Assembly (NCBI GenBank): GCA_050575255.1
Contig: JBNZDD010013687.1
Coordinates: forward strand, 5,933,012-5,997,011
DNA: 64,000 nt
Direction of reading: 5' to 3'
DNA from: Harriotta raleighana
Lineage: Eukaryota
The translations under genes were made by a program, and so were the position numbers. Shown piece by piece: positions 6,071-37,986 of this stretch. Below the pieces are notes generated by a model, which was not told the DNA's origin, searched no databases, and saw only the letters and a list, made by a program, of their open reading frames with translations. Position 1 is the first letter of the stretch; each line of letters begins with the position of its first letter.

Positions 6071-9000
6071 CTGGAAAGGAAAATCACGTACCAATTAGCA
6101 GCACCTTAAACTCTCCTTTTCTGTCCAGAGGACTCAGCAAAGCACTTTCTTCACCCTAACACCAAAGAAATGCTGAAAACCTTCTTGCAAGTGAAAGGTT
6201 AAAATGGCAGCAAGTTATTAATTTACATTCAAGAGTCTCCCCGCAGCATAATAATAATCCTTGCAATTGATGTAGCACTTTATCACATCGTTGAGACATC
6301 GCAAAGTGTTCCACAGAATATATATAGTTCAGGAAATGAGCCAGTGCATGGTCACAGAGCAGTCTTTTCATTTCTGGTGACCAATCCAGCTAGAATGGAT
6401 AGCTTAGACACACACAGCGTTGAATAGAAGTTTTTCACAGGAACGCCTTTTCTACAGTGCTTGCGTTCACCTCTCCCCTCCCGCTGGCTCAACTTTGTGC
6501 TCTGCCACTGTCAATTGCTCTGAGACCCTACCTTGTGTGAGTTGGGGGGGTGGGCTTTATAAATACAAGTTGTGATGTTGAATAATGAAACAATCCACTA
6601 GAGAGAGAGGTTGAGCAATTCTACTTATTGTTTCCAGATTGATGATTCTCTCAGGAGTCACAAACACATTTGTGTTTCTTTTATATCCGTGGCAGTGTTG
6701 TAAATCTGCATTGCTATGTGCTACATGTCCCTACCTCTTATCTTACCCTAGTGCAAATTTGGAAATACATCTACAGCTCGAATGAGTCAGAGAGAAATTT
6801 ATAAAAGACAGCAACAATTTAAAATTACAGTACTGCGTTCTAAAAGTACCATTTGAGATGGTTCTAGGAACATCAAAGTAATCCCAGTCTGCACACACAA
6901 ACACATTATGGGAGAAGCCGTTGAATAGAAGTTTATTTGATGATCTGTTTCAGTGCAAAGGTTAATGTTTCAAAGTAGCATTTCAACACCACCACTGAAA
7001 ATAACTGAAGCTTTTCACAGAAACACCATGAGCATCTCAATGCCTTTCTTACTAGAAGCATATTTTAAACAAAAAGATTGCCAGCCTAGCCTACCCGTAG
7101 CTTGGGAGACTTTGTAATTCATTCCAATTTGTCAGCCAATGGCAACTTCGACTAGTTACCCACATCAGAAGAGCAAACAAACCCTGGGGCAGCCACGTCT
7201 TACAATAATAACTGCATTTGATATAGCCCCTTATCACATCATTGAGTTGTCTCAAAAGTGCTTTGCAGGATGTACTGTAATATTAATCGCTGCTGCAGTG
7301 TATTTTTTCTTGTGGGCAAACGTGGCAGCCAGTTTGTGCACAGCAACAGCCTGCGAACAGCCCTGAAGTCCTTTGCCATTTTCTGAGCTCCGCCAGTTTA
7401 CCCTCAATTCATGAGTCACAAAATCCTATTCAGCAGAACCTGAGTCTCATCCTGCAAAGCAAGTTATATAAGTTTGACGTAGCTGAGAAATTCTCCTGAT
7501 ACTCAGTAGGTAGTAACAATCATCTTCGGGTTAACACTTTGGAATGCATTGTAGATGCGTGGCACATGCATCAGCTTGCTTTTGTTCATTGAAAATACCG
7601 AGGATCCTCATCTATCTGGCCTACATTATGAAGCTCCCCACCCTCCCCCCACTCCCACCGCCTCTCTTCCCCCCCCCACCCATACACACCACCTAACCTT
7701 TTGATTCATGCAATCTTGAAAGAACCAGTTTATTTTGTTCAACTTTTAAAGTGTAACCAGCTGGGTCAGTAATGGCAGTCAGATGTGGTACAAAAAGGAG
7801 CAGACATGATGAAAGGAGAAGCAATGAAAGATGCAGGAGATTCCCACAAAGCAATAGTCCAGCTCCTGTCACCCTGGTCCATGTTACACGTGTCAAAAGC
7901 GGACAGGGAAATGGAGCACTTGGTTCCAGTTTGCGGTTACACTTCAGGCATGAAGAGGTTTGGTAAAAGAGTGGCTTTCGGATTAAAAGATCTCTTAAAA
8001 TCACAAGATTGTCTTGGATGAAGAAGGTTCTTCAGCTAATCCGATCTCAACATTCCAGAACACCGACCAACTCCTATCATAGCGTGTGTGTTTTAATTTA
8101 TGAAACCACCCTTCCTGACAACCTTTTCCAGTAGTTAATTTCCCCTCCAGTTAAGAAACTCTTCCTCGTGTCAGTCCTGAAATTGCCCTTTCCAACTCTA
8201 AACATGTGTCCTCATGTCCTGCTGATTCAGTGCATACGGTTTCAATTCACAACCATTTGTGAGACACTGCTGAGCACAATTGGCTGCCACATTTCACCCA
8301 CAAAATATACAGTCAATTAATTTTACAGTATATTCTGTGATGTGCTTCGAGACATCTTGAAGGCGTGATAAGGCTCAATATCAAATGCAAGGATTTATTA
8401 TTAATATTATCATTATCATCATCACAAAGTATTGTTCTGGGTTTTCTTTCTCATAATCCCATGTAAAACCTTCGAATGACCTCCTCTGAGCCTTAATTTC
8501 TTGCGCTCCTAAATCATTGAAGAAGTAACTTTAATCTGAAATTGCAAGATATTTGGCTGTGTTTTTTAAAGTATGATTGAAATATTAATAAAAAAATAAA
8601 ATGCAACATGATCGTATATGTTGAGACCACTGATGACTTCAAAATACACAAGACCACAAGCTTCTAAATAAATGGGCACATGCTAAGACATAAACCTATT
8701 TACTGGTATGTTTAATACCAATATAATTATTTGCTGTGTTAAAGTGGCTGCTACATTCACCTACAAATACACAATCCTGGAGGAACTCACTGCTTATCTA
8801 ATTCTATAAAGTATCAGGCACAGGTTGGCAAGAGCCGAGGCTCAGTGACCCCAGAGTGTGCATTTTGGTACTGCTGGAATCTAACCAGCTAAAAAGGGCT
8901 TCAAGATGGTTTGATGACCCAGCATGAACAATAATTTACCTGCTCCCTTCACGTCGGAAGGACGTCTCAAAATGCTTCACACAGTTGACTTGGCACCTGA

Positions 9001-20896: not shown

Positions 20897-21970
20897 CTGA
20901 CAAGTGGAGGATGGGAAAAAAAAGGACCAAACAGTAATTAAACAGAAAAGTTTCAAAGACTCACCATGTCCCTCAGCGTGTCACTAGTTGGTGATAAATG
21001 CAACAACGAAAACTACTTGAATTGATATGCACAGTGTTGGAAGAGGCAAAGGATGGAGTTCCATAGGAGCAGAAAGTTGGGCATTTTGTTTCCGTTCCCT
21101 TTTAACTTCATGTAGATATTAGGCCCAGATAACCAAATTGTAACAGCTTTGCCCTGTAGTTGGCACTTGGGCCTTTCTCATCCTTCACACCCTGTTCTCA
21201 TCTGAAACTAATTTTGTTTTAGTTTTTTTTTGCTAGTTACTCTTGATGTGATATCGAGAAGGAACCAGATGATTAAGAATTATTTTAAGTCCTTCAGAGT
21301 TTGGGGGCTTACGGGGCAATATTACAGTATTAAAGCTAATTCTGATGTGTGCAGGTTCATTGTTGTTTATTGTCTTAGCACCACAGGTAGTAGTAAAGCT
21401 CATAACCTGAAAAACAATTCTGTCCCTGGGGCAGTCTGGAGGTTAAAATGGTAAGCGGAAGGCAATTATTTTCATTGGATCAAAGATTTAACAACAAAGA
21501 GGCAAGAGATAGCATTAAATAGATTGAGTTTCAAGGACAAGGGACCCAAGAGAAACAGATGGGAACTGCAAGGCTGCCAAATATTATTCTGTTTGTGTTT
21601 TATAAGGGGGGTAAATTAACTAGCAAGTTAATCAAATTAGGAATACAGAAATAAATTGTTGTGCTGGAAGGCTTAAATCAGAAATTACATTTGTATAGAG
21701 TCTTTCACGTCAGAAGGATGTCCCTAGTTCCCTGGACAGTGAAGGATTTGGCTTTGAGGTGGAGTTTGGGATCAGGAGGGATGGAGAGCAGGGAAGGTGG
21801 GGGCAGGAAGGTGACCAGAGGTGCAGTCAAAAAGGAAGGTCTTGAGATGGGTCTTAAATGGGAGGTAAGGGCGGGACGGATTTCCAGAGTTATGTCAATT
21901 TTGCATTTGCTTAATACCATTTGACAATGCTGTTTACATTTGCACAGTGCTATGATTAACCACACTATAC

Positions 21971-22304
21971 CTGGAAGCGTGTTCTTTCACTTGCGTATTT
22001 CTGATAGTGCAGCATTGCCTCCAGGACCTTCTTGTGACCCCCGGGCACCAAACAAACGGCCCCCAAAATTTCCAATACCGCGACTTTAGTCTTTATGTTT
22101 TCTGTGGTCAGACTCTGAGCTATTACGTTGATGCTCTCGACGTGAGCCAAAACGTGGGCCCTGCCCTGAGAGTTGTTCATTAATGCTTTAATGCAGCCTA
22201 TAAGAGAGGTATGTATTCGAGATTCTGAGGTTTCATAGTCCATACTTGTCAAAAAGTTCAGAATGCATGTTAACCCATCCAAGTCAATGAATCTGGTGAC
22301 AAAC
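21971..22304 (-). CDS. DAAM1: DAAM1 exon 6 ([17 protein letters not shown]...YASERTRFQ)
   Basis: 334 nt, acceptor ttccacag, donor gtatag; GBD/FH3 armadillo region. Confidence 0.97.
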
Positions 22305-23070
22305 CTGTGGAATTGAACAAACACAGCAGTTAATGAATAGAGAGTCAAATAATTCACAGCATCACAGAAAGAACAGCACAGCAGGAAATCATTCGTTCCA
22401 TCTGGCCTATGCTGATGCTAGCTTTTCCAATGGAATCAACTATTCTAATCTAATTGTAATTCCCTGCTCAATTGAAACAATCAAGAAAGTATGTTCTGAG
22501 ACTATTTCAAATACGTCCGAGGTGAGTGAGATAATCAATTTTAAGTGACTTCTTCAATACACTATTTGACAAAACTCACAATCTGTCGGGTGGTTAAGCA
22601 ATCCTGCAAGCAAAAGCCCTAATGGGTAGGATGGTCCTATCTGGAACAGCAATGTGAAACATGCCAAATAATGCTTTCAATAGCAAGCTATGCAGTTTTA
22701 GCTGATTAAGATTCCAGCAGTTACCCAGTGCCCACTGTTGGTCCCCAAGCCTTGGCTCTTACCGACCTGTGCCCAACACTGCAGAAGTAGGTAAGGAGGA
22801 TACATCCATCCAGGGAGAGAGTGCGCATTGCATTCCAAACACGGCAGGAATTTCCATGTGTAGGAGACATGCATGGAACTCTCAATTAGGTTTGGAAACT
22901 CATTAACATGGTGATGGGCTTCCGCGTGCATCAGATACTCGGCTGATCAAGAAAAAAAACAGCTTCAGAGCTGGCAGGGAAGATGCTGACTATTACATTT
23001 TTCACACCTCATGAAGCAGACTCATCGGATTGCAATAAATTAAAGAATCTTATATAAAACCTTTCAAATA

Positions 23071-23454
23071 CAGTAAACCTTGATAATCTGGTACGGTAGG
23101 GCCCACGCACCTCCCGATTTCAGAGTTTGCCGGCATCTAGAAACCTATCTAGAAATGGCTGGCAGAGCCTCGCCCCATATTTACAAAGTGTGTTGTAAAT
23201 ACAGCACAGAAACTTAAAAATGCTCGCGCTTCACCCACAGCACTGGATGGCAGAGCGGCCACGCCGGGAACTGCAAGCAGCTGCTCCGAACCTCGAGAGA
23301 TTTGCTGGAAATCGGAAAAAATCTAACACTGTTGTGTTTTGAAATCTTGAAATCCTCCCGGCATGAAAGGCATTCTAGAAATGTAATTTTGTTGTTGTTG
23401 TCAGTTTTAGAGAGTTGTCAGGTTTTAGAATGTTGGATTATCGAGGTTTTACTG
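23071..23454. mobile_element. Tc1/mariner (Tigger/pogo-like) MITE
   Basis: TIRs cagtaaaccttgataatc and gattatcgaggttttactg with TA on both sides; an L2-type tail is nested at about 23350-23400. Confidence 0.8.
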
Positions 23455-23584
23455 TACTATTTTCATGAAAGGAGTTGAGAAAGTAATTTTAAGCTCGAAA
23501 AGCCGATCGCTGTCAACTCCCAAACCGAGTGTCTTCTCGGTGGCACAGTTGGTAATATGAAACAATCAAAGAGAGATAGATTGC

Positions 23585-23679
23585 CTCATAGGTTGTGTTC
23601 TTAGTGCTGTCTTCAAACTCTCAATGGTTTTATTTCTTTCTTCCTCGTCTTCTTTCTCCAAAGCCAAGAGAGATTTTCT
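23585..23679 (-). CDS. DAAM1: DAAM1 exon 5 (RKSLLALEKEDEEERNKTIESLKTALRTQPM-R)
   Basis: 95 nt, acceptor cccattttag. Ends ATG AG followed by a non-canonical GC donor (gcaatc); read-through hits TGA. Confidence 0.93.
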
Positions 23680-25124
23680 CTAAAATGGGAGAACAAAAAC
23701 ACATCCATTCACATCTCTTACACAAAGTCAGAAAGTAACAAGTGTATGTCACAATAATGCAATATAATTGAGCTATATAGGTTATTTTATTCTCAGTATT
23801 ATCCTCACTTCATCCTTCAATATCTGCTCCAATTTAGCGAGGCACATATTCAGCAGGCTCATCTCCATTTCCCATGCGAAATCTCCATTTCACATGAGAA
23901 ATATAGGCCATCCAGTTTTCAGGTGCTCCAATTTAGCACAGGGTCAATGAAGATGATGATGTCAGTGTGGCTTCCTATCCATAGCATACAACAATGCAGA
24001 ATGTGACATCAGCAGTGTCCGATAACCCAGAAACTAACAGCACACAGGCTACCTGCCTTATATACAAACAAGGGTTGTAAGCAAGTATCTTATAACAGGA
24101 TGGCAGTAGTCCTTGCAGATCAGATGGTCACAGATTCAACACCCATTTCACAATGGGTGAATGTGTATGGATGTAGGGTAGTGATATGCTATAAATGGCT
24201 TCAGTGCCACTATGCTATCAAGGGGTGGGGAGTGAGAAAAAATAGTGCCCAGGAACATTAATCCTGATCGTTACAAGTAGCTTCTGATGGAAGATGCAGA
24301 CCAGGCTCCACAACAGAATAGATCCCCACTCAGTCTTGCATGTGCTGTCCGGACTCTTACATGATGGACACTTGGATAAGTAACTGGAGGGCCTCAAGCA
24401 TCTGTGGAGTCAGCTCAGTGGTATTCAGAGGAGGTGGTGAGGGGGGTGGGGGGAGGAGAGGGGGGAGAGAGGAAAGCAACCCTACACATGTATACCTTCT
24501 CAAAGTGTAAAAGCACCAATTCACCCCCTTTTCGCCCCCTGCTCCTCCGTCGACACAAAATGCAACACTAACAACATTAACCCACTAGGGTGATACTAAT
24601 GCAGTTGTTCACCAACTGGCAATGAATTTTGACAGCTGTCACTGCAAGAGTGCAGAGCACACACTACCCTAAAGGCTCATCTGTATGATGATGTTATCGC
24701 CTCACCAGCAGCAGTCAAATACAATTGTGTCAAATGCAATCCAGTTCCCAATGCAAATCGCACGGCTTCCATACTGGATTATTCTGGTGGTGAAATAACA
24801 GGGATAGTTCTGTGACCACCCAAGCTCATTCCCCTCAAGTCAAAAGAAATCCTCTCGACTGGGGTACAAGCTTGGGTGTTAACGTAACTATCCCTGGGAG
24901 ACTTGTACTTTCCCCGAAGTGTGAAAAACCAACAACATTTGAGCTGCGATTGTGTGGACAGAAAAGCTTGCGTGTTGTTACATTGGTATCTGCCTTCTCT
25001 CTCCCCCCTCCAGGCTAATGACTGCAACCTCACCCTGGTTTCAACCTTACAATGTCACCACACGAACATTTCTTGCAAACAAGCTCTCTCCCGTCATATA
25101 AATTCTGTCCGCAATCCTCACCCC

Positions 25125-25340
25125 TCCCGTCCCTTTCCTCTCTCTTTCCCTCCCTCTCTCTCTGCATTAACCTGCCTGCCATTTCTCTCTCTCTCTTACT
25201 CCATTATGCTTTCCCCTATCTCTCTCTCCCTTTCCTCCCCTTTCTCATTCCCCTCCCACTCTCTCTTTCTCTGTTTCTCCATCCCTACCCCACTCCCTCT
25301 CTCTCTGTTTCCCCCTCACACCCCGCTCCCTCTCTCTGGC
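25125..25340. repeat. CT-rich low-complexity tract
   Basis: Almost pure polypyrimidine on the + strand. Confidence 0.85.
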
Positions 25341-25370
25341 CGCTACCTGCAGCAGTATTTATTATGTATA

Positions 25371-25570
25371 CAGTACTTAACTTCCCAATGACAGGCACAT
25401 CTGGACGACGTAAAAAACCGCAACTTTTAAAAGGACCCAGAACGAGTTTAGACCCAAGATTAAACGTGTCTCCGGATAACTTCCAGTTAAACGGATCGGG
25501 ACTTTTTTTTTAGATGGCGGTTGAACGGGTTTTCCGATTATTCGAGTCATGGATAAACGGGGTTCTACTG
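25371..25570. mobile_element. Partial Tigger-like DNA transposon
   Basis: Right end ggataaacggggttctactg|ta is a Tigger-type TIR; CpG-rich interior; no clear left TIR. Confidence 0.55.
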
Positions 25571-26049
25571 TAATAGTTTATATTCCAATTCTTAATCCAT
25601 CTGTTTCAATTGCTTAGTCACAAATAGAGGCCCAGCAATAGACACACAAAATTATATTGGGTGACTCAGGCAAGTTTTATATCTATCAGATGAATTAATG
25701 ACAAATGTTTCCAATTATTCAAGGCTGTGTCAGGAATCGTACAGAGGACATGCAGTCCTTAAAATAATATAGTTTCCGTACAAGAAAAAGGATCTTAAGC
25801 ACTTAACACTATTAGTATCAATACATGAATGCAACAATGAGATTAACCCTAGTGTCAGGGTAGCTTTGAGTAATTGGAAGAATGAAAGTAGATTTGTGAA
25901 GTGCTGAAACTGAGCATTCGCATTTGTATTTATAGACTGAACTCTTTGATAAGTGATTTTGTTCAGCATTTGAACAGCATTTTGTTCCACTTTCATATTT
26001 TACATTGTGAAAATGGATCAGATCACTGTATTTAGCCCCTGTTAACATT

Positions 26050-26790
26050 AGAACATAAGAATTAGGAGCAGGAGTAGGCCATTCGGCCCTTCAAGCCTAC
26101 CCCGCCATTCAAAAAGATCATAGCTGGTCTTCTGCCCTAATTCTGTTTAGCCAGCTTCTTCTCACTTAGTGAAGATATTCCAATGTAGACTCACTAACAA
26201 TACAGGATTGGAGAAAGATCAAGGCCAGGCAGATGTTTAGCTCTTCCTTTGGAGCAATGCTCTAATCCCAATTCCTTACTCGCTGCCAGCATCTTGTAAA
26301 TTGTTCATCTTCCAATTCTTAACTTTTCAATTATTATGGTTTTAGCTTAAAAACCCACTTCAGTAAAATTTTCCATGCCCTAACCCATTGCATCAATAAA
26401 AGGCTTCTTATCTCTCCCAGAATTTTGGTTGACAAACTTGTCCATTTTGACCAATTGCACAACCAGTGGGAAATATCTTTCCCCCTGTTCATCCTCTCAA
26501 ACCCCTTTAGAATTTTGAAGACTTTTCCAGTAGATTTCCTCTTAATCTTCTCTGCTTCAGGGAAAACAGGCCTACATTTTCATGATTGTCCTTGCTAGGC
26601 ATGAAATTGCCCTGAGATGTTATCCTGAGTGAGAGGGCTTTATAAATGCATATTGTTGTTGTTACTATAACACCCCCCCTCACCCATGTTATCTGTGGGA
26701 ACATACTCTGCATCCTCTGCCATTTCTGACATCCTTTCTATATTGGGGCATCTAGAAATGCACACAATATCTCAAATAAGCCCCAACCCA
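26050..26790 (-). mobile_element. Degraded CR1-type LINE 3' fragments
   Basis: CR1 tail (aacataagaattaggagcaggagtaggccattcggccc on +) and GLFSLKQRRLRGNLLE on -. Confidence 0.72.
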
Positions 26791-27143
26791 ATTCTTCCCT
26801 CACCAGCTATTAAATTCATAAGTACAGAAAAAGAAAAAAAGATTCTGATCTTAAAACCTGACCTTTAAACTCAATGCACCTCATTCTAAAGCACTGGCTA
26901 CACTCAGCATCGTTGCTCATTGAGAAGCTCGGAGTAAAATGCGTCGAGTCTTCTAAACACTAGAGTGTGGGCATTGCGGGCAGCTATCTTCTAAAGCTTC
27001 ATTGTTGATGGACTCACAGCAAATTCCCCCTCCTTCATTTAATGAGTTCCAATGATTCCTGAATCCCACTGTCCAGCCTACAGTGAACAGCAGCACCACG
27101 CAGACTGCCCTGAACAAAACTACCAGGCTGATGGGACACTCAC

Positions 27144-27215
27144 AGCTGCCATGGAATTCAGCTGATCGATGTAAAACTCCGGCCAGCTTGTGGCTCCTTT
27201 ATTCTCCTCTTGGTC
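27144..27215 (-). CDS. DAAM1: DAAM1 exon 4 (DQEENKGATSWPEFYIDQLNSMAA)
   Basis: 72 nt, phase 0/0, acceptor ttctttttcag, donor gtgagt; absent from the ORF track. Confidence 0.96.
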
Positions 27216-28481
27216 CTGAAAAAGAAAATAATATCACACATCAGCACAGGAGGAACTAAGAAGCACTTCGCAACGAGTGCATCATTATATAAAATATTTT
27301 AAAATACACTCATTATAAATATATTTCCATTATATGGAGTGCATATTGTCACCCACAAAATACAGTTTTAATGTTTTGACTTCATAATTTATATATATAT
27401 TGTCCGCGAAGCGCTTTCGGGCGTCTCAATGATGTGATAAGGTGCTATATCAAATGCAAGGATTATTATATTATTATTATTTGGTTGACAATGGGAGACA
27501 TATTAAATATGTGTATTAAATTCTGGTCCACTCATTTCCTTTTGGTGCAGGAAATTGCTGAGGGAGCAGCTCAGCCAGGATGAGCAAAAATACGCATCCA
27601 ACCAACCGATCAACATTCTTACTTTCAGTGCCTTGTCTCCACTCTATCTCTACTTTCTTTTTGAATGGTTTACGTTTTGCTTTTGCTTTTAGAAAGCGGT
27701 AGTGGGGGAAACCCACAGAGATGATAAAAAAGTCACCAATCTTCCCCCCACACCACCGCAGATACTGAAGCCAAACACAGTGATAGTGAACTGAACGAAG
27801 GAATATATTGGGACTGGAAAAGACAGTGGACTGGTCCATTGCTCTCATAATCTACCTCCATCATTTCCTTGGAACAAGTCATTCCACACACAGCTCCAGC
27901 TTTATCATAACAAGGCAATCAGCCTCCTTAAAATGAGATTGTGTCACAATGCGACATATCGCAGAAAAGGATATTCTTCCCCCTTTCTCTCACTTCCTTC
28001 ACTTTGCTGAGTGCAACAACAACATCTTGCATTGATATCCTTCACTTAGAGTACAAATCGGCAATCATAATTGCCTACAAGTACACAGTCAGTACATTAA
28101 GGTAAATTATGTGAACATGTGAAAAGCGCTGCTACACAAGGATTACCATCATATTTGTAGAGTCATAATTCAGATATATTGTGTTATATCTGAATGGACT
28201 GAACTGTACTCTCTCCTCTGTGTGATAGAATAAATCACTGTACTAATTTTATGATGTGGGAATGAACCGAGCCACCCACGATTCGAGGCACTGGTTCCCC
28301 AATGAACAACGATTGCCTTGGTGTCATAGAAAAAACACTTTACAACCACTTTGACCACCACAGTTAAAGGTCATCACAAAAACACTGATCAAAGCTCCTC
28401 AACAGTGACAAAGGCTTCTTCCCTCTTCACCGGAGCCCCATTTGATTACCCTTTTGAACACAGGAGAGTTAAATCACTTAC

Positions 28482-28496
28482 TTGCATTTCAAAGCA
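28482..28496 (-). other. Candidate 15-nt microexon (CFEMQ) between DAAM1 exons 3 and 4
   Basis: tttctgcttcataatggcag|TGCTTTGAAATGCAA|gtaagtga; frame-preserving in a phase-0 intron; no transcript evidence available. Confidence 0.35.
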
Positions 28497-30134
28497 CTGC
28501 CATTATGAAGCAGAAACAATGACAAGGTAGAAAAACAGCCATCTTAGCAGTGAGAGACACAGCAGAATGAAACACAGAGAAAGGTAACATGGTCAATTAA
28601 TCTCAACCCAAGTAAAATTTGGAGTTTTCTGAAAATACCAGAGGGCTTCACAACATTATCAAATCAGAGATTCCTCAATAATCATGCAACATATCATTTC
28701 CGGTCCTGTTGTGAAATATTTTTTTTTTTTTACTTAGAGGAAACCCCCTAACCACATAAGCAATAAGAGGCTTTTTAGTTCTTGGAACTACAGTAGTCAC
28801 AAAGAAGATTCCAAGACAATCCTGCATCCATACTTTGAATGTATTTACAGAGCATTGCATAGTTCGTCTACATAATACATTCTACAGTGAAGGGTATTGA
28901 GACATCCTCCCGACACATATCAAATGTAAGGATTATTATCATTGCAACACAAAAAAACTTAACATGCTCCTGTTTATAACATGGTCCTGTTAATAAAAGC
29001 CAAGCTTTTTCAAAAGTTGATTGGAAGGCGACGAAAAGGTACCCGATATAAGCAAGTTATGTTGATATTCTAGGGCAAAAATCCAGACACCACCCAGCAC
29101 TCACAGCAAATGGGGACATGAGCACAAAGAACAAAAGATATGAAATGGGACCACATCTGGCCAGATAAATAAATGCCCTCATTCCTTCCAGAAACATCAA
29201 ACCTTAGATAATTACAGCGAGTAAGGAGGTCATTCGGCCCATCGAGTCTGGACTAGCTCTAGGAATAAGCTGTTCATTCAGTCCCACTGTCTCACCCGAT
29301 TCCCATACCCCTTCAAGCCTCAAACTTTCTCCCACAAGCATTCAAAAACTAAAGGCAGTCCCTATGGTAAACGTACTTGAGAATAATTTATTCAGAGTGC
29401 ATTTGAGTAAGACAGCTGCCGAAAATGCAGTTCCATCAGTCTAGGAAACTAGCACTTTTTAGTTCTGGCAAATAAGATTTTTTAAAATGTCTCAGAATCG
29501 CTGGAAGTCACCAACCTCTCTCTCTGTATCTTTGGCTAATCTTTACGTCTTGCCAACTCTTCTAAGAGCAAGTGGAGCCTGCAGTGTTCAAACAAACCTT
29601 ATCTAGTAAATGACCTCTCGAGGGAGCTCCCATTAGAAATGGCAAGAACCCAAGCAGCTTATTGACCGACTGCTAAATGCTTAACTTCCACTTTTACCAG
29701 TCAGCAAAAGGAACAGCCGTCTATCTGTAGGATAGATTATTTCCTTCATTAAATACGAATGAAACATTAATAAAACTTTCATGCAAAATTCTGATATGTG
29801 CTACATATTTTAAAAGTTCCCTCAAACCATATGCCCCCAAGAGTTTAACTGTTTCTCAAGAGCGTTTCCTCTGGAAATGAATTGTGTTGAGCAGACCTGC
29901 AAAAGAGATGAAAACTCAGAAGAGCTTGATAAGGTGGACACAAATAGATTGTCCAATTATTGATGAGCCGATAACAAAAAAGACACAAGGCTAAGCCAGT
30001 CACTAGCTGATCTAATAGGGAGAGTGTAGGATGCACTTCTTCACACATTCTTCAAGAGTATTGAACTTGCTGCCAGTATGTGTGCGTGAAGCAGAAAGTG
30101 TTAATGTATTTAAGACCAAAGACAATATAGTACA

Positions 30135-30650
30135 AAAGTACATTTGTAAAGCACCATTTACGTCAGGAGGACATTCCAAGATACTGAACCTTCGGGGATT
30201 AGAATCCGAGCGTGGGTGCCGGGTTGGAGCATGGGATCAGGGAGGGTGGAGCACAGAGAAGATGGCCGAAGGCACAATCAAAGAGAGTTTTGAACCATAC
30301 CTTAAAGGAGGCAAGAGAAGGTGTGAAGCAAAGGGAATGTGGGATGGGGTTCCAGAGGGTGGGGGCACAGGCTAAAGGCATGACCACCGATGGTGAGGTG
30401 GGCCAGGCGGGGAACATAGAGCAGGCTGGAACCTGCTGAGGGGAGGGAGCAGACAGGTTGATAAGCCGTTATCAGTTTGGAGAGTTAGGAGGCAGCAAGG
30501 CCATGGAGGGCTTTGAAGATGAAGACAAGAATTTTGAATTCAATCCTCTGAGGGGTGACGAGCTAGTGAAGCCAGCTGAGGGTGGGTATGAGGGGATAAT
30601 GGAGCCTGGTGCAGGAGAGGACATGATTTGGAGAGTTCTGGATAATGCTC
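30135..30650 (-). mobile_element. L2-type LINE 3' fragment
   Basis: Minus strand shows APTLWNPIP...SFKVWFKTLFD and an L2 tail, related to the 45101 copy. Confidence 0.8.
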
Positions 30651-30989
30651 TTATATGAGGGATAAGTGATAAGTGGGGGCTAGAGAGAGATTAACAAGGT
30701 TGGAAGCTCATGCGGAGAATAAATAACGGATTAGTTGGATCAAATGGCCCGTTTCAGCATGTAAGATTCCATCAGAAACACAATTACGAAAAATGTTGCA
30801 GCTAAAATCAACCATTAAGATCTCTGTTGACTGAGAGCACACAGCTGTTGTTCATAACCACGAATGGCAGTATCCAAATTGGAAAGTGCCCTGTGAGATC
30901 TTCACAATGTGTAATTAAACCCTGACAGCCTTGCCACCTCCTATCTTTCCAACCTGCTGTTTTCCTATGAACTTGCCTATTCCCTCCAT

Positions 30990-31295
30990 TCACTGGGCTA
31001 CGGTCTGCTCTATGTCCCCCGAATCACCCTACCATCGGTGGACGGGCTTTCAGCCTCTCTGCCTCCACACTCTGGAACTCCATCCCAGTCCCTTTGACTC
31101 GCTCTCTCTCTTGCCTGCTTCAAGGTATGCATCAAGACTCTGCTCTTCGACTGTGCCTTTGGCCACTCTCTCTGCCCTCAAACCTCTCTGATCCCACCCC
31201 ACCAACCCCAACACTCGGGTTCTAATCCCTGACGGTTCCGTGTCTTGGAATGTCCTCCCGACGTAAATGGCGCTCTGTAAGTGTAATTTTGTTGC
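30990..31295 (+). mobile_element. L2-type LINE 3' fragment
   Basis: ccatcggtggacgggctttcagcc..ctctggaactccatccc..cttggaatgtcctcccgacgtaaatggcgctc..taattttgttg. Confidence 0.8.
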
Positions 31296-32620
31296 TGGAA
31301 GTTGGACTCTCTTCTGCAGTACTATTGTGTTTATAGAGCACCAGGTTCAGTGATTTGGCAGCAATATACAGAAATATGTAGTGCATCTTGCCTCTGAATG
31401 TACACTCCTTCCCCCACACCAAAACCCCTGTTCCCTGTTTAACAATGACATTGTAGTCATCGGTAAGCAAACTAAAATTTCCCCAGCAGTGGCTGGCAGC
31501 AGACGAGGTTCCATTTACAACTAATTCAATCTCGAATAATTTTGATGATTAATCTACACAGTAGATTATTGAACCAAAAATGTAAGAACAAAGCAAGCAA
31601 TATTTTCCCAGTTGTATTTAATACTTCACCAGTCACAATGTGTGTTTAATGCAATTCTTGTATTTACGTTTCAGTCTTGTGAGTAATCTTGCATTTTTGG
31701 ATAAGAAGCAGGCAGACCTCATTAATGCAGTTGTATAGTTTACACAAGTGACTGTGTTTAAACAGGGTCTTAACCTGCGGGGCCCAAGGTAATGAAGTTT
31801 GAGTTGAGTTTAAATAGAATAGCGTGTTCTTTTAACATGAGTAGCTCTGGTTTGTTTTTGGAATAATGTGTACTGCTCCCTACGGCACCAATGTTCTGTT
31901 CAGCAAGTGAGGTTTGAGTTGGGTTCAGAAGTTGGAATTAGAGCCGCTCAAAACAGGCAATGCTTAAGGTTTGGCACACGAGGACTTGACACAGAAAACC
32001 TGCTTGAAAAACAGAATACTTCACACCTACCATTTTGCTCTGGAATGTCACTCCAATCCAACTCAGGCTGGAATGTGCGCAAACATAAAACCACCTCCGT
32101 TCATAAAAAAATACAATAAGCCCCAAATTCTCAGCAAGTGGGAACTACAAAGAAACAGCCTCTCTCCTCATCACTGATGCTGGAGCAGAGCTTCAGCCTC
32201 TGTGTTTAAGAAATCACATCTCGTCTCAGGAGGACAGAAAAATACCATTTAAATTCCTGCACTTGGATTAAATATGTAGTTCTTGTATTTCATGACAGAT
32301 TTCTCAACAAATGAGTCAAAACATTGAACATGCTGAAGTATGCTTTGCTCGAAACATCCGATGCTTAGAATTTCGACTTTTGTAAAGAACTCCCTCAGAG
32401 TTTTCTCTCCGTCTCCCACAATTTAGACTAAATTCTCTTGTCTCGACACAGACAGTAAGGCGGTTGAAGGGCAAAGCCAAGCTAAGGATAAAAAGGAGCC
32501 TCATCATTACCGAAGAGTCAAGTTTTTAAAAGGCAAATTGCCAAGCAATAATGTGGAAACATTGTTTTGATCATTGAGAAATTATTAAAAATACTTAATA
32601 AATATCCTAGCATATGATAT

Positions 32621-32917
32621 AATAATATTCCTTGTATTTTAATATAGTGCGTTTCACTTCAAGACGTCTCAAAGCACTTCACATTTACTGTAAAGTGAAT
32701 TGACTGTATATATGTGGGCGAAACGCGGCAGCAATTGTGCACAGCAGGTCCCACAAATAGTCGTAGATTGAATTGACCAATTGATTATAGTTTTTTTTAA
32801 GGGATTATTATCAGGCGTGTGGAATAAGGAAACCAAAGTTTTGTCCTGCCTGAAATTGAATCCAGGTCTGTTGCTTGTAAGACGAGTGCTCTCACCACCG
32901 AGCTAGAGGACTCCACA
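32621..32917 (-). mobile_element. Full-length tRNA-derived SINE (same family as 9925)
   Basis: Reverse-complement match across head, core and tail. Confidence 0.86.
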
Positions 32918-32934
32918 ATATAGACTCCACAATA

Positions 32935-33160
32935 TACCCTCTTCACTCGGAGGGTAGTGAATTTATCGAATTCACTACCCCAGAAGGCTGCAGATGCTCA
33001 ATCCTTGAACAATTTCAAGGCTGAGACTGATAGATTTTTTAAAAATAGAGGGATTAGGGGATATGGGGATAGGGCAAGTAATTAGAGTTAGGTCAGAATG
33101 ACGGGGCAGGCTTGATGGGCCAAATGGCCTACACCTGCTCCTAATTCTTATGTTCTTATA
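32935..33160 (+). mobile_element. CR1-type LINE 3' end
   Basis: ttcactcggagggtagtgaat..gatgggccaaatggcctacacctgctcctaattcttatgttctta. Confidence 0.78.
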
Positions 33161-34174
33161 GCATCACTTTGTTGAGATATCTCAAAGTGCTTCACAGAAT
33201 TGACTATATATTTTGCGGGTGAAACGTGGCAGCTAATTGAATTGAAGATGGAATTGAATTGAAGGTGGAATGCAAACAAAAAAAAATTCGAGAACAGTTA
33301 AAAAAAACAAAGAATTGGAACAAGCCTTGATGAACTTTTCCACTAAAGAGGAGAATGGGGTTGGACAGAGACGGGCATTTGTTTGGTGAAAAGTAATTAC
33401 ATTTAAGCCTCTGCAGGAATGTAGGTCTTGTGGAGATTTCTGCACAGAAATCAGTTTCAGGACCGCGGACTTTGTGGTATTTTTTCCCCCAACAGTAATA
33501 CCTCCTAAGACTCCAACCTGACCTTGCTGAAAGCTTGAATCCTTTTGGAATTAAGCAAAGTGACCTCCTGATTCATGATATTATGAAAAGGCTGTTTGGG
33601 ATAGACTGGGTAAACACAGCCATTGTTATAAAGCATATATTTCGTAGCCTTGATTTTTTTGATAGATTAGAGAAGGCAAACCCAGAGCAAATCTTTTCAG
33701 CAAGATTGTAGGATGCGAGGGCATGGGTTCAGGGTTGTGAAGGATGATTTTAGCACTGATAAGTATTTCTTTACACAGCAGGCAAAAATTAGCTAGAATG
33801 GGTTACAATGAATTTGGGAAGTGGAAGGCCACACCACTGGGAAGATGGGATGGTTGGCATTCTGGAAGGAGGAGATCAAATTAAATGTAGGACCTTCTGC
33901 AAACAAAAGTATTGCAATCTCATCTTCTGTCCTATGTTTTACACTTTAATATGATGGGTCCGGGTTGGGGGAGACAGGTTGTACAGAATCCAGCATTCAG
34001 TCAGGTCGAGTATGTGTCTATATATACATATAGATAACATATAAAAATGGACTGAGCAGTATTGCCTTTCATGTCACGTGAGAAACATGCTCCACAACAA
34101 GCATCGGCTTTCCTGACCAGTTTAAGGTTGGATTGCACCACATGACAAATAAGCACCACATGTCTTCCATTGAT

Positions 34175-34426
34175 ATAATAATCCTTGATTTGATACAGCG
34201 CTTTACACGTCTTCTAGACGACTCAAAGCGCTTCACAAAATATATTGTAAAGTGAATTAACTATATATATGTGGGCGAAACGTGACAGCCAATTGCACAC
34301 AGCAGTATCACACAAAAAGTCGCGGATTGAATTGACCTTTTTTTAAGGGATTACTATTCGGTGTGTGGAGTAAGGAAACTTGTCCAAGGTTTTGTCCTGC
34401 CTGGAATTGAACCCAGGTCTCTCGCT
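34175..34426 (-). mobile_element. tRNA-derived SINE with truncated head
   Basis: Same family; stops inside the tRNA head. Confidence 0.84.
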
Positions 34427-35279
34427 CATTGACATCATCACCAGATATCCCACTCATTGCAGTACAAAAAAAGGGATCTCACACAAACCAAGCCATGGGG
34501 ATCCTAGGGGCATTTAAAAACACTGAGAAATAGTTTAGCAGGATGAGAATAAAAGGGCAAATGAAACAAAGGAATACAACATAATGGAGCAGTGGGAAAC
34601 ATTTGTCCTACAGTCATAATACTGTGCCCTAATATGGCATCACCCTATCATTACATAGTGAAGTCAAGGCTATATATAAGAATCTGGATGTTGGTGGTTA
34701 GGACGAGGTTTGGAAATACAGTACATTCTTCTGCAAACTTGTGTCCTGTAAAATCTGGACACTGCATAGCACCATTATTGCCAGTGCAGATCGAAGGAAA
34801 CAAGGGGAAATTAAACAACAGTTGTCTCATTGGGTCTGATGGTTTTGTACAACTTCAGGTGTCACGTTGAAAAAATTTTAGCAAAGAAAAAATGTTTCAA
34901 AATGAAACAATGATGGAAGGCGGCATAAATCTTACAGCGGCTGCATTTTTAAAAAAAAATGGTACATGTTTATCATTTCACGAAAAGTATTTTTATGTGG
35001 CACAATAAAGATTTAAACTGTTTGTGGAAGTAGCAGACATTAAGTAATTGCTGATCAAGAATATGTTTGCAATATCAGATAATCCTTTGGGAAACTGCTG
35101 AGTAAAATTCACAGGAATTAAATGGGATTAAGCAGAGATTTTGAATTAAAACAGAGAACTAAGAACCTACAGTGAGATAAAGCACAAGTCACCAGTTGAA
35201 AGGTGCCATAGGTTCGTATCAGCAAAGCAAAATTCGAGAAGGAATTAGGTAAGTTTTTGATAAAGAGGCATATTTTGGA

Positions 35280-35563
35280 TCACTCGACTGCCCTAACATA
35301 GGTGGCCGGGCTTTCAGCCTCTCTGCCCCTACACTTTAGAACTCCATCCCACAATCCCTTTGCCTTGATCCCTCCCTTGCCTCCTTCAAGACAGGTCTCA
35401 AGATCCACCTCTTCGCCCCCTCCTACCTCTCTGGCCTCCCTCATCCCAACCATGCATCCCACCCCTCCTCCACCCCCCATTCGGGTCCCAACCCCTGGCT
35501 ATTCAGCTACTTAGGACGTCTCCCAATGTGAAAGGTGCTCCAAAAATGTAAATTTGTTGTTGT
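35280..35563 (+). mobile_element. L2-type LINE 3' fragment
   Basis: ggtggccgggctttcagcc motif, pyrimidine-rich 3'UTR and ttg-repeat tail. Confidence 0.78.
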
Positions 35564-36972
35564 TCGCCACAAAATACACAATCAATCCACTTTATAATAT
35601 ATCCTGTGAAGCATGTGGAATGTTCATCTGATGTAAAAAGCAAATGCAAGAATGATTATTATTAATAATATTATCATCATCATCATAGGACAAGAAATCG
35701 CTTTGAGAAGTTTTTACATGAATTGTTCCATGACTGCAAGTTCTTTCTTCTAAACGCACATTGAGTACAGCCCTCTTTGATGAATATAATATCAACATCG
35801 GAAGTTTGTGCTGCTGCAGTCTATACAAGTACAAAACCTTAACCCTCGGGAAATTAGATACACTTGTGCCTAAGTGTAGCACTAAGCTGGGGGCTCACAT
35901 GAGTCTTGTAAAAATAGAAACACTAGGGGGAATCACATTATAACCGCGAAAGGTCAGGAGGTATATAATAAATACATAATAAACCTTACTGTATTTGATA
36001 TAGTGCCTTTTACATTGGGGACACACACCTGAAAGCGCTTAACAAGACATACTGTATAGTGACTGTATTTTAGAAACAGATATGGCAGCCAATTTGCACC
36101 AAGTCCCATGAAGCCATGAAGTTATGGACCAACAAACAAATCCAATCCCCCGTATCAATGTGTTAATAATCCTTGCATTTGTTATAGCACCTTATCACAT
36201 CGTTGAAACTCCTCAAAGCAAATCCCCTCTGGTGAAATGTGGCAGCCAATTGAACACATTCAGTGGGTTAAATGATCAAATTAAGCATTTATTTTTATTC
36301 CCACAGAAATAATTTCTCAAGACACTGAGAATTTTGCTGTAGTTCTGAGCAATTCAATGGTAGCTTCCGTCTTGCCTTTGAACAAAGGAATAAAATGTTC
36401 TGACAGGCAAGAAGCATTGCTGACAGGTAAGAAACATTGCTCAAAATAAGACAAAGTTACTTTGGTAATATTTCAGTGGATGAAAACTGCAACATCTCAA
36501 TCCATCTCATTCCATAAAGGCCTTTTTTTTTTGCTTGTCCCTAAACCAAATTGTACCTAGTTAGGTAATGCAAACCAAATGTCAGCAGCTTTTTTAAAAA
36601 TAAACCTGTTTCTTGCATTGGAGGAAATGAAAAGGATATTCTGGAATAATTAATTTTGAAATGATTTGACTCATTTCAAAATGGTTAACCTTGTAATTTA
36701 ATATTGAGGTGTTTGGTGACTCCCTTCTCTAAAAGAAAACAACCATTCACCAGTCTCTCATCCGCTCTCCCACATACGCAATTAATCCAGTCTACATTTC
36801 TTCAATCCCTCCTATCTGTACTTCAGAGACTTTTTCATTAGCTGGGACAGTGAGTTACTGTTTTTTGGGAGGGGGGCAGGTGGAGGGTGGTGGTGGGATT
36901 TCCCATGGAGGCAGGGAATACTGGACGGGATTCAGGGCAATCCACAAACAACAGATTAGGTTTTTGCCTTAC

Positions 36973-37062
36973 CTTTTTCTTGCTGCAGTATATTTGCCAT
37001 TTCTTTTCTGCAGGAAGTGCAAACATGGCTTCCCTGTGCTTCTCACTGAGGTCAAGTTCATC
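36973..37062 (-). CDS. DAAM1: DAAM1 exon 3 ([30 protein letters not shown])
   Basis: 90 nt, phase 0/0, acceptor tatctcag, donor gtaagg; GBD sequence. Confidence 0.96.
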
Positions 37063-37986
37063 CTGAGATAAGAGAACATGTTAAACGATCAGTATTTTTC
37101 TAAAGAACCAACTTGCATCAACATTTCTTACTGAAAAAAAACTTTGAAACCAGCCAAGATTCCGTACTTTCAGGTCAACATTCACCCAGCTGTTGCAAAC
37201 AATTAGACAGTAAATAGTGAGGTATGAACTGAATGTTCATACACAAACTTGCAAAAGAACTGGATGGTGACATACAGAGTTATCTTATACACAGACTTTT
37301 CACCTTTCATACCTGGCTTCAAAACTATGGTACACTCAAGTAACATCATGGGAATAGATTTAGACAGCCACAATAACAGTGTCCACCACATGACTTAAAA
37401 CAGTCTCTAGTGGGAGCTGCTGTACACTGGGACTCACAGCGGTAGGTGGTAGAGTGGGGAGGGGGAGTAAGCTAAAATGGAGGGGGGAGCTAAAGTGCGA
37501 GGAGCAGAAGATGAACTGTGAGGAGTGAGGAGGATAAGGTGGTGGGGGGAGAGGGGCGGGTGGGGGGGGGGGAGGAGAAGGTTGCTGAGCTCCGGGGGAG
37601 TAGTTAAGGTCTGGGTTGTGGGCCAAGAGAAGCACACAAGGTTTCTAAAGCTTGCCAGATGTCAGAGCCTAAAATAGAGTCTGGATTTGAAAACAGTCCT
37701 GGGGCAATACATGTGTATGTGGGGGAGGGGAGAGAATAGAGAATGGAGGATGGGTGGTGCGGGGGGCGGAAAGAAGAGAGACGATGGATTTATTCAGGAA
37801 CAAACCCTGCTGTTTAATACACAAGGTTCAAATGTTAAGAGATTCTCCCTTGTAAGCTGAAAATGGCAAATTAGCTCATGACATTAATCAATGATTATGC
37901 TTCCAGACTCGACAGAAGTTTAAAAAAAAGCACACAAGCTTCTCAAGTCACATAGCTTCAAGCACCCAGAAAACATTAAAATCCAC

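Follow-up and report, generated by a model that had tools for sequence, protein, structure and literature searches.

The DAAM1 locus and the candidate exon

DAAM1 is encoded on the minus strand of the window, by which we mean the whole 64,000-nt stretch of Harriotta raleighana DNA analysed here (genome size 1.10 Gb). With the Callorhinchus milii protein P0149 as tblastn query, each exon could be located in turn between 52025 and about 275. The exon-encoded protein was 99% identical to that of C. milii over 108 residues, and the peptides obtained by reading through introns were alike but not identical. The intron that holds the candidate is 9,757 nt long, has GT...AG ends and is in phase 0, as a preliminary description of the stretch had it. 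That description had placed the intron between exons 3 and 4; the pair of exons was right, but the tblastn map counts them as the second and third coding exons, and the higher numbers presumably include an untranslated exon. Coordinates are given in Table 1.

Two irregularities were noted along the window. At 53900-53300, near-identical translated stretches with an N in their midst are spaced by about 270-290 bases, a pattern that points to duplication in the assembly. At 36973-36521, the C. milii models P0004, P0148 and P0179 run into the intron or omit the next exon; these anomalies resemble errors of annotation and leave the candidate unaffected.

Table 1. Positions of the candidate exon, its splice signals and related features (window coordinates except for the paralog)
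Feature	Position	Strand	Remarks
Upstream DAAM1 coding exon, 90 nt	37062-36973	minus	2nd coding exon, tblastn map
Upstream pyrimidine tract with UCUC and UGC motifs	28545..28592	minus	
Alternative 61-nt exon from upstream AG 28544-28543	28542-28482	minus	frameshifting, stop after 17 codons
Acceptor AG 28498-28497 and AG-free pyrimidine-rich zone (44 nt)	28497..28542	minus	sequence inspection
Candidate 15-nt microexon	28496-28482	minus	five codons, no stop, sequence inspection
Donor hexamer GTAAGT	28481-28476	minus	8/9 matches to vertebrate donor consensus
Downstream DAAM1 coding exon, 72 nt	27215-27144	minus	3rd coding exon, tblastn map
Known FH2 microexon, 30 nt	15448-15419	minus	10/10 residues as in the C. 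milii isoform
DAAM2-like paralog	G000:C13709:110848-156465 (L004-L008)	minus	

Splice signals of the candidate

The preliminary description had proposed a 15-nt exon in frame within this intron, preceded by an AG with a 44-nt AG-free zone and a UGC, and followed by GTAAGT. We found every one of these elements where it had been placed, and a check of the sequence showed that insertion between the flanking exons introduces no stop. The intron has GTAAGT only once on its sense strand, as this donor, and twice on the antisense strand. UGC occurs 11, 48 and 63 nt before the candidate AG, the nearest at 28512-28510; the pyrimidine fraction is 0.77 at -45 to -11 of the acceptor, and UCUC motifs lie 57-59 nt upstream of the 15-nt candidate. 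Branch-point-like yUnAy pentamers are located 10, 55, 72, 97 and 101 nt before it. The four farther ones sit upstream of the competing AG, and the AG-free zone holds one, just 10 nt from the exon, unlike the FH2 microexon.

Among the features of SRRM3/4-type microexons, the candidate has a frame-keeping length within 3-27 nt (15 nt, stop-free, in a phase-0 intron), a strong 5' splice site (8/9, against the vertebrate consensus), a UGC between pyrimidine tract and AG, UCUC upstream and a long AG-free zone. The order of UCUC followed by UGC fits the bipartite enhancer outlined in 10.1101/2024.09.17.613571. By anatomy, the candidate looks like an SRRM3/4 microexon.

The FH2 microexon of the same gene, Daam1-MIC (HsaEX0018410; zebrafish DreEX0025590; PMC12056172), served as an internal positive control. 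Both are in frame with a GTAAGT donor, both have a long AG-free zone with a UGC near the AG, and their pyrimidine fractions over 93 nt are equal (0.70, about the 99th percentile). They differ in that Daam1-MIC is 27-30 nt long and lies in FH2, whereas the candidate is 15 nt long and lies in the GTPase-binding region. In addition, Daam1-MIC is conserved from sharks to humans and has been shown to be neural and SRRM3/4-dependent.

Rarity and origin of the signature

We then asked how often such a site occurs, using a strict rule (GTAAGT, 3-30 nt in frame, AG-free zone of at least 30 nt, UGC within 22 nt, pyrimidine fraction of at least 0.6) whose thresholds were fixed post hoc, with the candidate already known. 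On the sense strand of DAAM1, the rule picked out two sites, the candidate and the true FH2 microexon. The antisense strand of the gene gave no site under the strict rule, and neither did 60 background stretches (1,165,702 strand-bases, in an unspecified mix of intronic and intergenic DNA). When any one condition was dropped, 7 to 10 sites appeared in the same background. Under a graded rule, two background donors had 7/9 matches (1.7 per Mb, 0.08 per gene) and 21 had 6/9 matches (18 per Mb, 0.86 per gene).

Local dinucleotide shuffles of the intron produced a strict-rule site in 9 of 400 cases, reached a site with a GTRAG donor in 55 of 400 and did so with a loose donor in 301 of 400. Because the thresholds were set post hoc, such a site stands out within a single intron, though it would not in a scan of a whole genome. 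At 1.7 per Mb, a 1.1-Gb genome would be expected to hold hundreds of such sense-intron sites, and a scan made window by window would find them.

The candidate stretch was single-copy in a genome search that skipped very common words. Three origins were considered and rejected. A simple repeat is not the source, since no tandem repeat covers the tract. Nor is a mobile element, given the single genomic copy and the lack of any match better than E ~1 in 70 genomic stretches. A copy shared with the paralog was likewise dismissed, as the matching DAAM2 intron (14.5 kb) contained no site even under loose rules.

Look-alikes were also seen in repeats. One dispersed repeat family carries a long AG-free zone, a UGC, 16-23 nt and GTAAGT, and at L021:6482, L022:783, L034:1263, L037, L038, L044 and L048 it supplied seven of the eight any-frame background matches. 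Two pairs of identical matches in L021-L022 lie 4,301 bases apart, pointing to a tandem duplication or an assembly artefact. A weaker look-alike at 22778 of the window (minus strand; 12 or 16 nt, by choice of donor) is apparently within a repeat, and sequences like it were picked up at 8803 as well as on the antisense strand.

Search for the insert in DAAM proteins and published surveys

To look for the insert in proteins, we collected the best 120 of 2,117, of 212 and of 675 matches, which with 55 from a cluster look-up made a set of 394. Both flanking anchors were present in 283, which could be scored; the other 111 could not. The five-residue insert was found in none of the 283 (absent from 103 of 103, 53 of 53 and 127 of 127 by batch). 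In the batches of 103 and 53 proteins there were zero extra residues at the junction. The batch of 127 comprised 92 proteins without an extra residue, 20 shorter by 1-3 residues (teleosts), 14 one residue longer (DAAM2-type) and one with a duplicated upstream exon. As the orthologous insert was sought in other vertebrates' proteins and occurred in 0 of 283, the candidate falls outside the vertebrate-conserved neural microexon set.

The insert was absent in the 20 cartilaginous-fish species with both anchors (22 were named, and one species is holocephalan), and the C. milii models have no insert at the junction. The FH2 microexon, in contrast, is included in cartilaginous-fish models (among them P0149, P0010, P0142 and P0007). 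Exons of 15 nt are missed by gene-model pipelines more readily than those of 30 nt.

Among published surveys, PMC12056172, which starts from human and mouse data, lists six neural exons in four formins, and DAAM1 contributes just one, in FH2. The zebrafish neural-exon table of PMC12626424 (file 6) has daam1a once, as the FH2 ortholog. No daam1 entry occurred in the supplements of PMC12626420, file 13 aside, and the titles and abstract openings of the literature searched held no pointer to a second DAAM1 microexon. The remark that known DAAM1 isoforms lack the insert is upheld by the protein set and by what these surveys report for human, mouse and zebrafish. The surveys would overlook an exon limited to holocephalans. 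According to 10.64898/2026.09.05.749416, the median share of vertebrate neural exons that are conserved in a second species is 63%; exons of restricted distribution are thus frequent enough for a lineage-restricted microexon to stay under consideration.

Predicted position of the insert in the protein

The junction corresponds to residues 93/94 of P0149 and lies inside Pfam Drf_GBD (49-234), confirming the proposed placement in the Rho-GTPase-binding domain. For structure we used a model of P0134, a protein of skate or ray type that lacks the insert; the model is of modest confidence (mean pLDDT 60.8, 11 sequences). In it, the junction follows residue 45, within a predicted helix (33-50) that is followed by a low-confidence segment (52-65). 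The GTPase-binding domain of mDia1 consists of three helices with a short linker to FH3, as described in PMC4111664. The first three helices of our model appear to match these, which would put the insert at the end of the third. Among 33 and 15 structure matches, none was a solved structure covering the N-terminal region of DAAM1.

The segment after the junction has a five-residue gap against FMNL2, and in teleost DAAM1 and in DAAM2 its length varies by -3 to +1. This variable length makes an insert structurally plausible, and neither proves nor disproves its use.

These data bear on the possibility of a real, lineage-restricted neural microexon, which we consider unlikely. In such a case SRRM3/4 would bind the UGC and aid a weak, set-back acceptor, and the five residues added where the third helix ends could modulate Rho binding or the release of autoinhibition. 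The full signature is rare and is common to the true FH2 microexon, and the UCUC-then-UGC layout and strong donor agree with published features. The junction is in Drf_GBD, close to where a predicted helix ends ahead of the low-confidence segment, and FMNL1 has a microexon beside its GTPase-binding domain (PMC12056172). That exon, FMNL1-A, is likewise in-frame and neural, but it belongs to a different gene, and the likeness is one of domain neighbourhood rather than of proven positional equivalence. However, the insert was missing from every scoreable protein, C. milii models included, the AG-free zone has no yUnAy save the one 10 nt from the exon, and the junction is inside the predicted helix rather than in a loop.

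Comparison with presumed RNA of a relative

A search of sequencing runs listed none recorded as RNA of this species and gave one run, X1, from a relative (0.05 share; guessed RNA label; tissue unspecified), with which we compared the window at 21900-37200. X1 behaves like spliced and unspliced RNA of that relative, with about 96% identity in the large exon. Among the 15 of 585 entries that were listed, one was an exon-exon joint (23676 to 27144); these 15 include neither the candidate intron's joint nor that of the next exon pair, an uninformative absence. The intron contigs of X1 extend 30 bases into used exons and stop there (for record 2, at 27173 and 23650). Record 3 is one unbroken contig over 27849-28668, spanning 28482-28542, and the homologous intron segment thus exists in the relative. 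Since 15 nt is shorter than the assembly word, the contig is uninformative on the 15-nt exon; it speaks weakly against abundant 61-nt or first-exon forms.

The X1 piece that bears the site differed at 107 of 820 bases (13.0%), the highest of the eight listed pieces; the other seven diverged by 7.1-12.1% (10.5% pooled). These eight were drawn from more than 42,000 pieces, some hold a few exon bases, and an 820-base average is blind to a short conserved core. A rough model gave likelihood ratios of 0.57, 0.34, 0.15 and 0.05 for a conserved block of 60, 100, 150 and 200 nt against none. The surrounding piece shows no sign of a conserved block, and this leans modestly against a conserved exon, the lineage-restricted microexon among the readings affected.

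Two other uses of the same donor were considered. First, the upstream AG could yield a 61-nt poison exon, leading to nonsense-mediated decay and lower DAAM1. Such an exon with an in-frame stop had been predicted, and it is present: inclusion would bring a premature stop once 17 codons had been read in the incoming frame. The AG-free zone of the upstream AG measures 57 nt, its pyrimidine fraction is 0.80, and a branch-like pentamer is located 51 nt upstream; protein sets would not reveal an exon of this kind. Regulated poison exons are often strongly conserved. The X1 piece over the site, unlike many of them, is not, and record 3 runs unbroken across both ends of the 61-nt exon, although this counts for little in a relative with unspecified tissue and rare variants dropped. 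The papers listed for DAAM1 and poison exons were general ones. We regard a poison exon as improbable.

Second, the donor could end an alternative first exon. An ATG lies within the last two codons of the 15-nt candidate, in frame with the next DAAM1 exon and preceded by an in-frame stop, and it would start DAAM1 without its first 93 residues. Yet 0 of 33 N-termini inspected start in this way, and models without the upstream exon have unrelated starts. The X1 contig is also unbroken over the donor, at a depth of 12.1 compared with 8.7 and 13.4 in two other intron pieces. A first exon here is very improbable.

Discussion

We conclude that the candidate is probably a cryptic pseudo-microexon with SRRM3/4-type signals that is skipped in most DAAM1 transcripts. 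The weight given to each reading is a judgement from observed rates and not a computed posterior. A strong donor lies 15 nt past an AG that closes a long pyrimidine- and UGC-rich stretch. Without an activator, an exon of 15 nt would be too short to be defined efficiently, and the strong exons on either side would therefore be joined directly to each other. Inclusion, if any, would amount to low-level leakage in SRRM3/4-rich cells, outside selection, and the signals would be motifs that came together by chance as the 9.8-kb intron drifted.

Cryptic (CR) microexons of VastDB are defined by inclusion below 10% in more than 90% of samples, according to 10.1101/2024.09.17.613571. Like the candidate, they are microexon-sized and have splice sites, some with UGC and UCUC; their class is defined by measured inclusion, whereas the candidate is known from sequence alone. 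We infer that it resembles them in being mostly skipped and not under selection.

The cryptic interpretation is favoured by the insert missing from 283 proteins, by surveys that give the FH2 microexon only, by the divergence of X1 and by the empty DAAM2 intron. It also draws on the 1.7 to 18 look-alike donors per Mb obtained under looser rules. Against it stands the rarity of the full signature (0 in the background, 9/400 shuffles), and the sole other strict match in the gene is a true microexon of equal pyrimidine fraction. The exon would preserve the frame, and the loop next to it tolerates changes in length. Furthermore, pipelines can miss 15-nt exons, the protein set holds one holocephalan species, many neural exons are not conserved in another species (median conserved share, 63%), and the 820-base average misses a short core. 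We also entertain, with considerable doubt, a fuller version in which holocephalan DAAM1 has a second, lineage-restricted SRRM3/4 microexon where the Rho-binding helices end, so that neurons would tune both the regulatory and the actin-building end of the formin, with the 61-nt poison form as an alternative from the same donor.

If the site is unused, as the cryptic interpretation holds, it would be an ordinary look-alike and a caution that microexon signals alone prove no exon. If it is used, it would be a young neural microexon at the Rho GTPase binding region, in a gene that has an ancient one. Even then it would add one new example to a well-known class, from a lineage in which study is difficult, and it would provide a testable case of microexon birth and of a coding-versus-poison choice at one donor.
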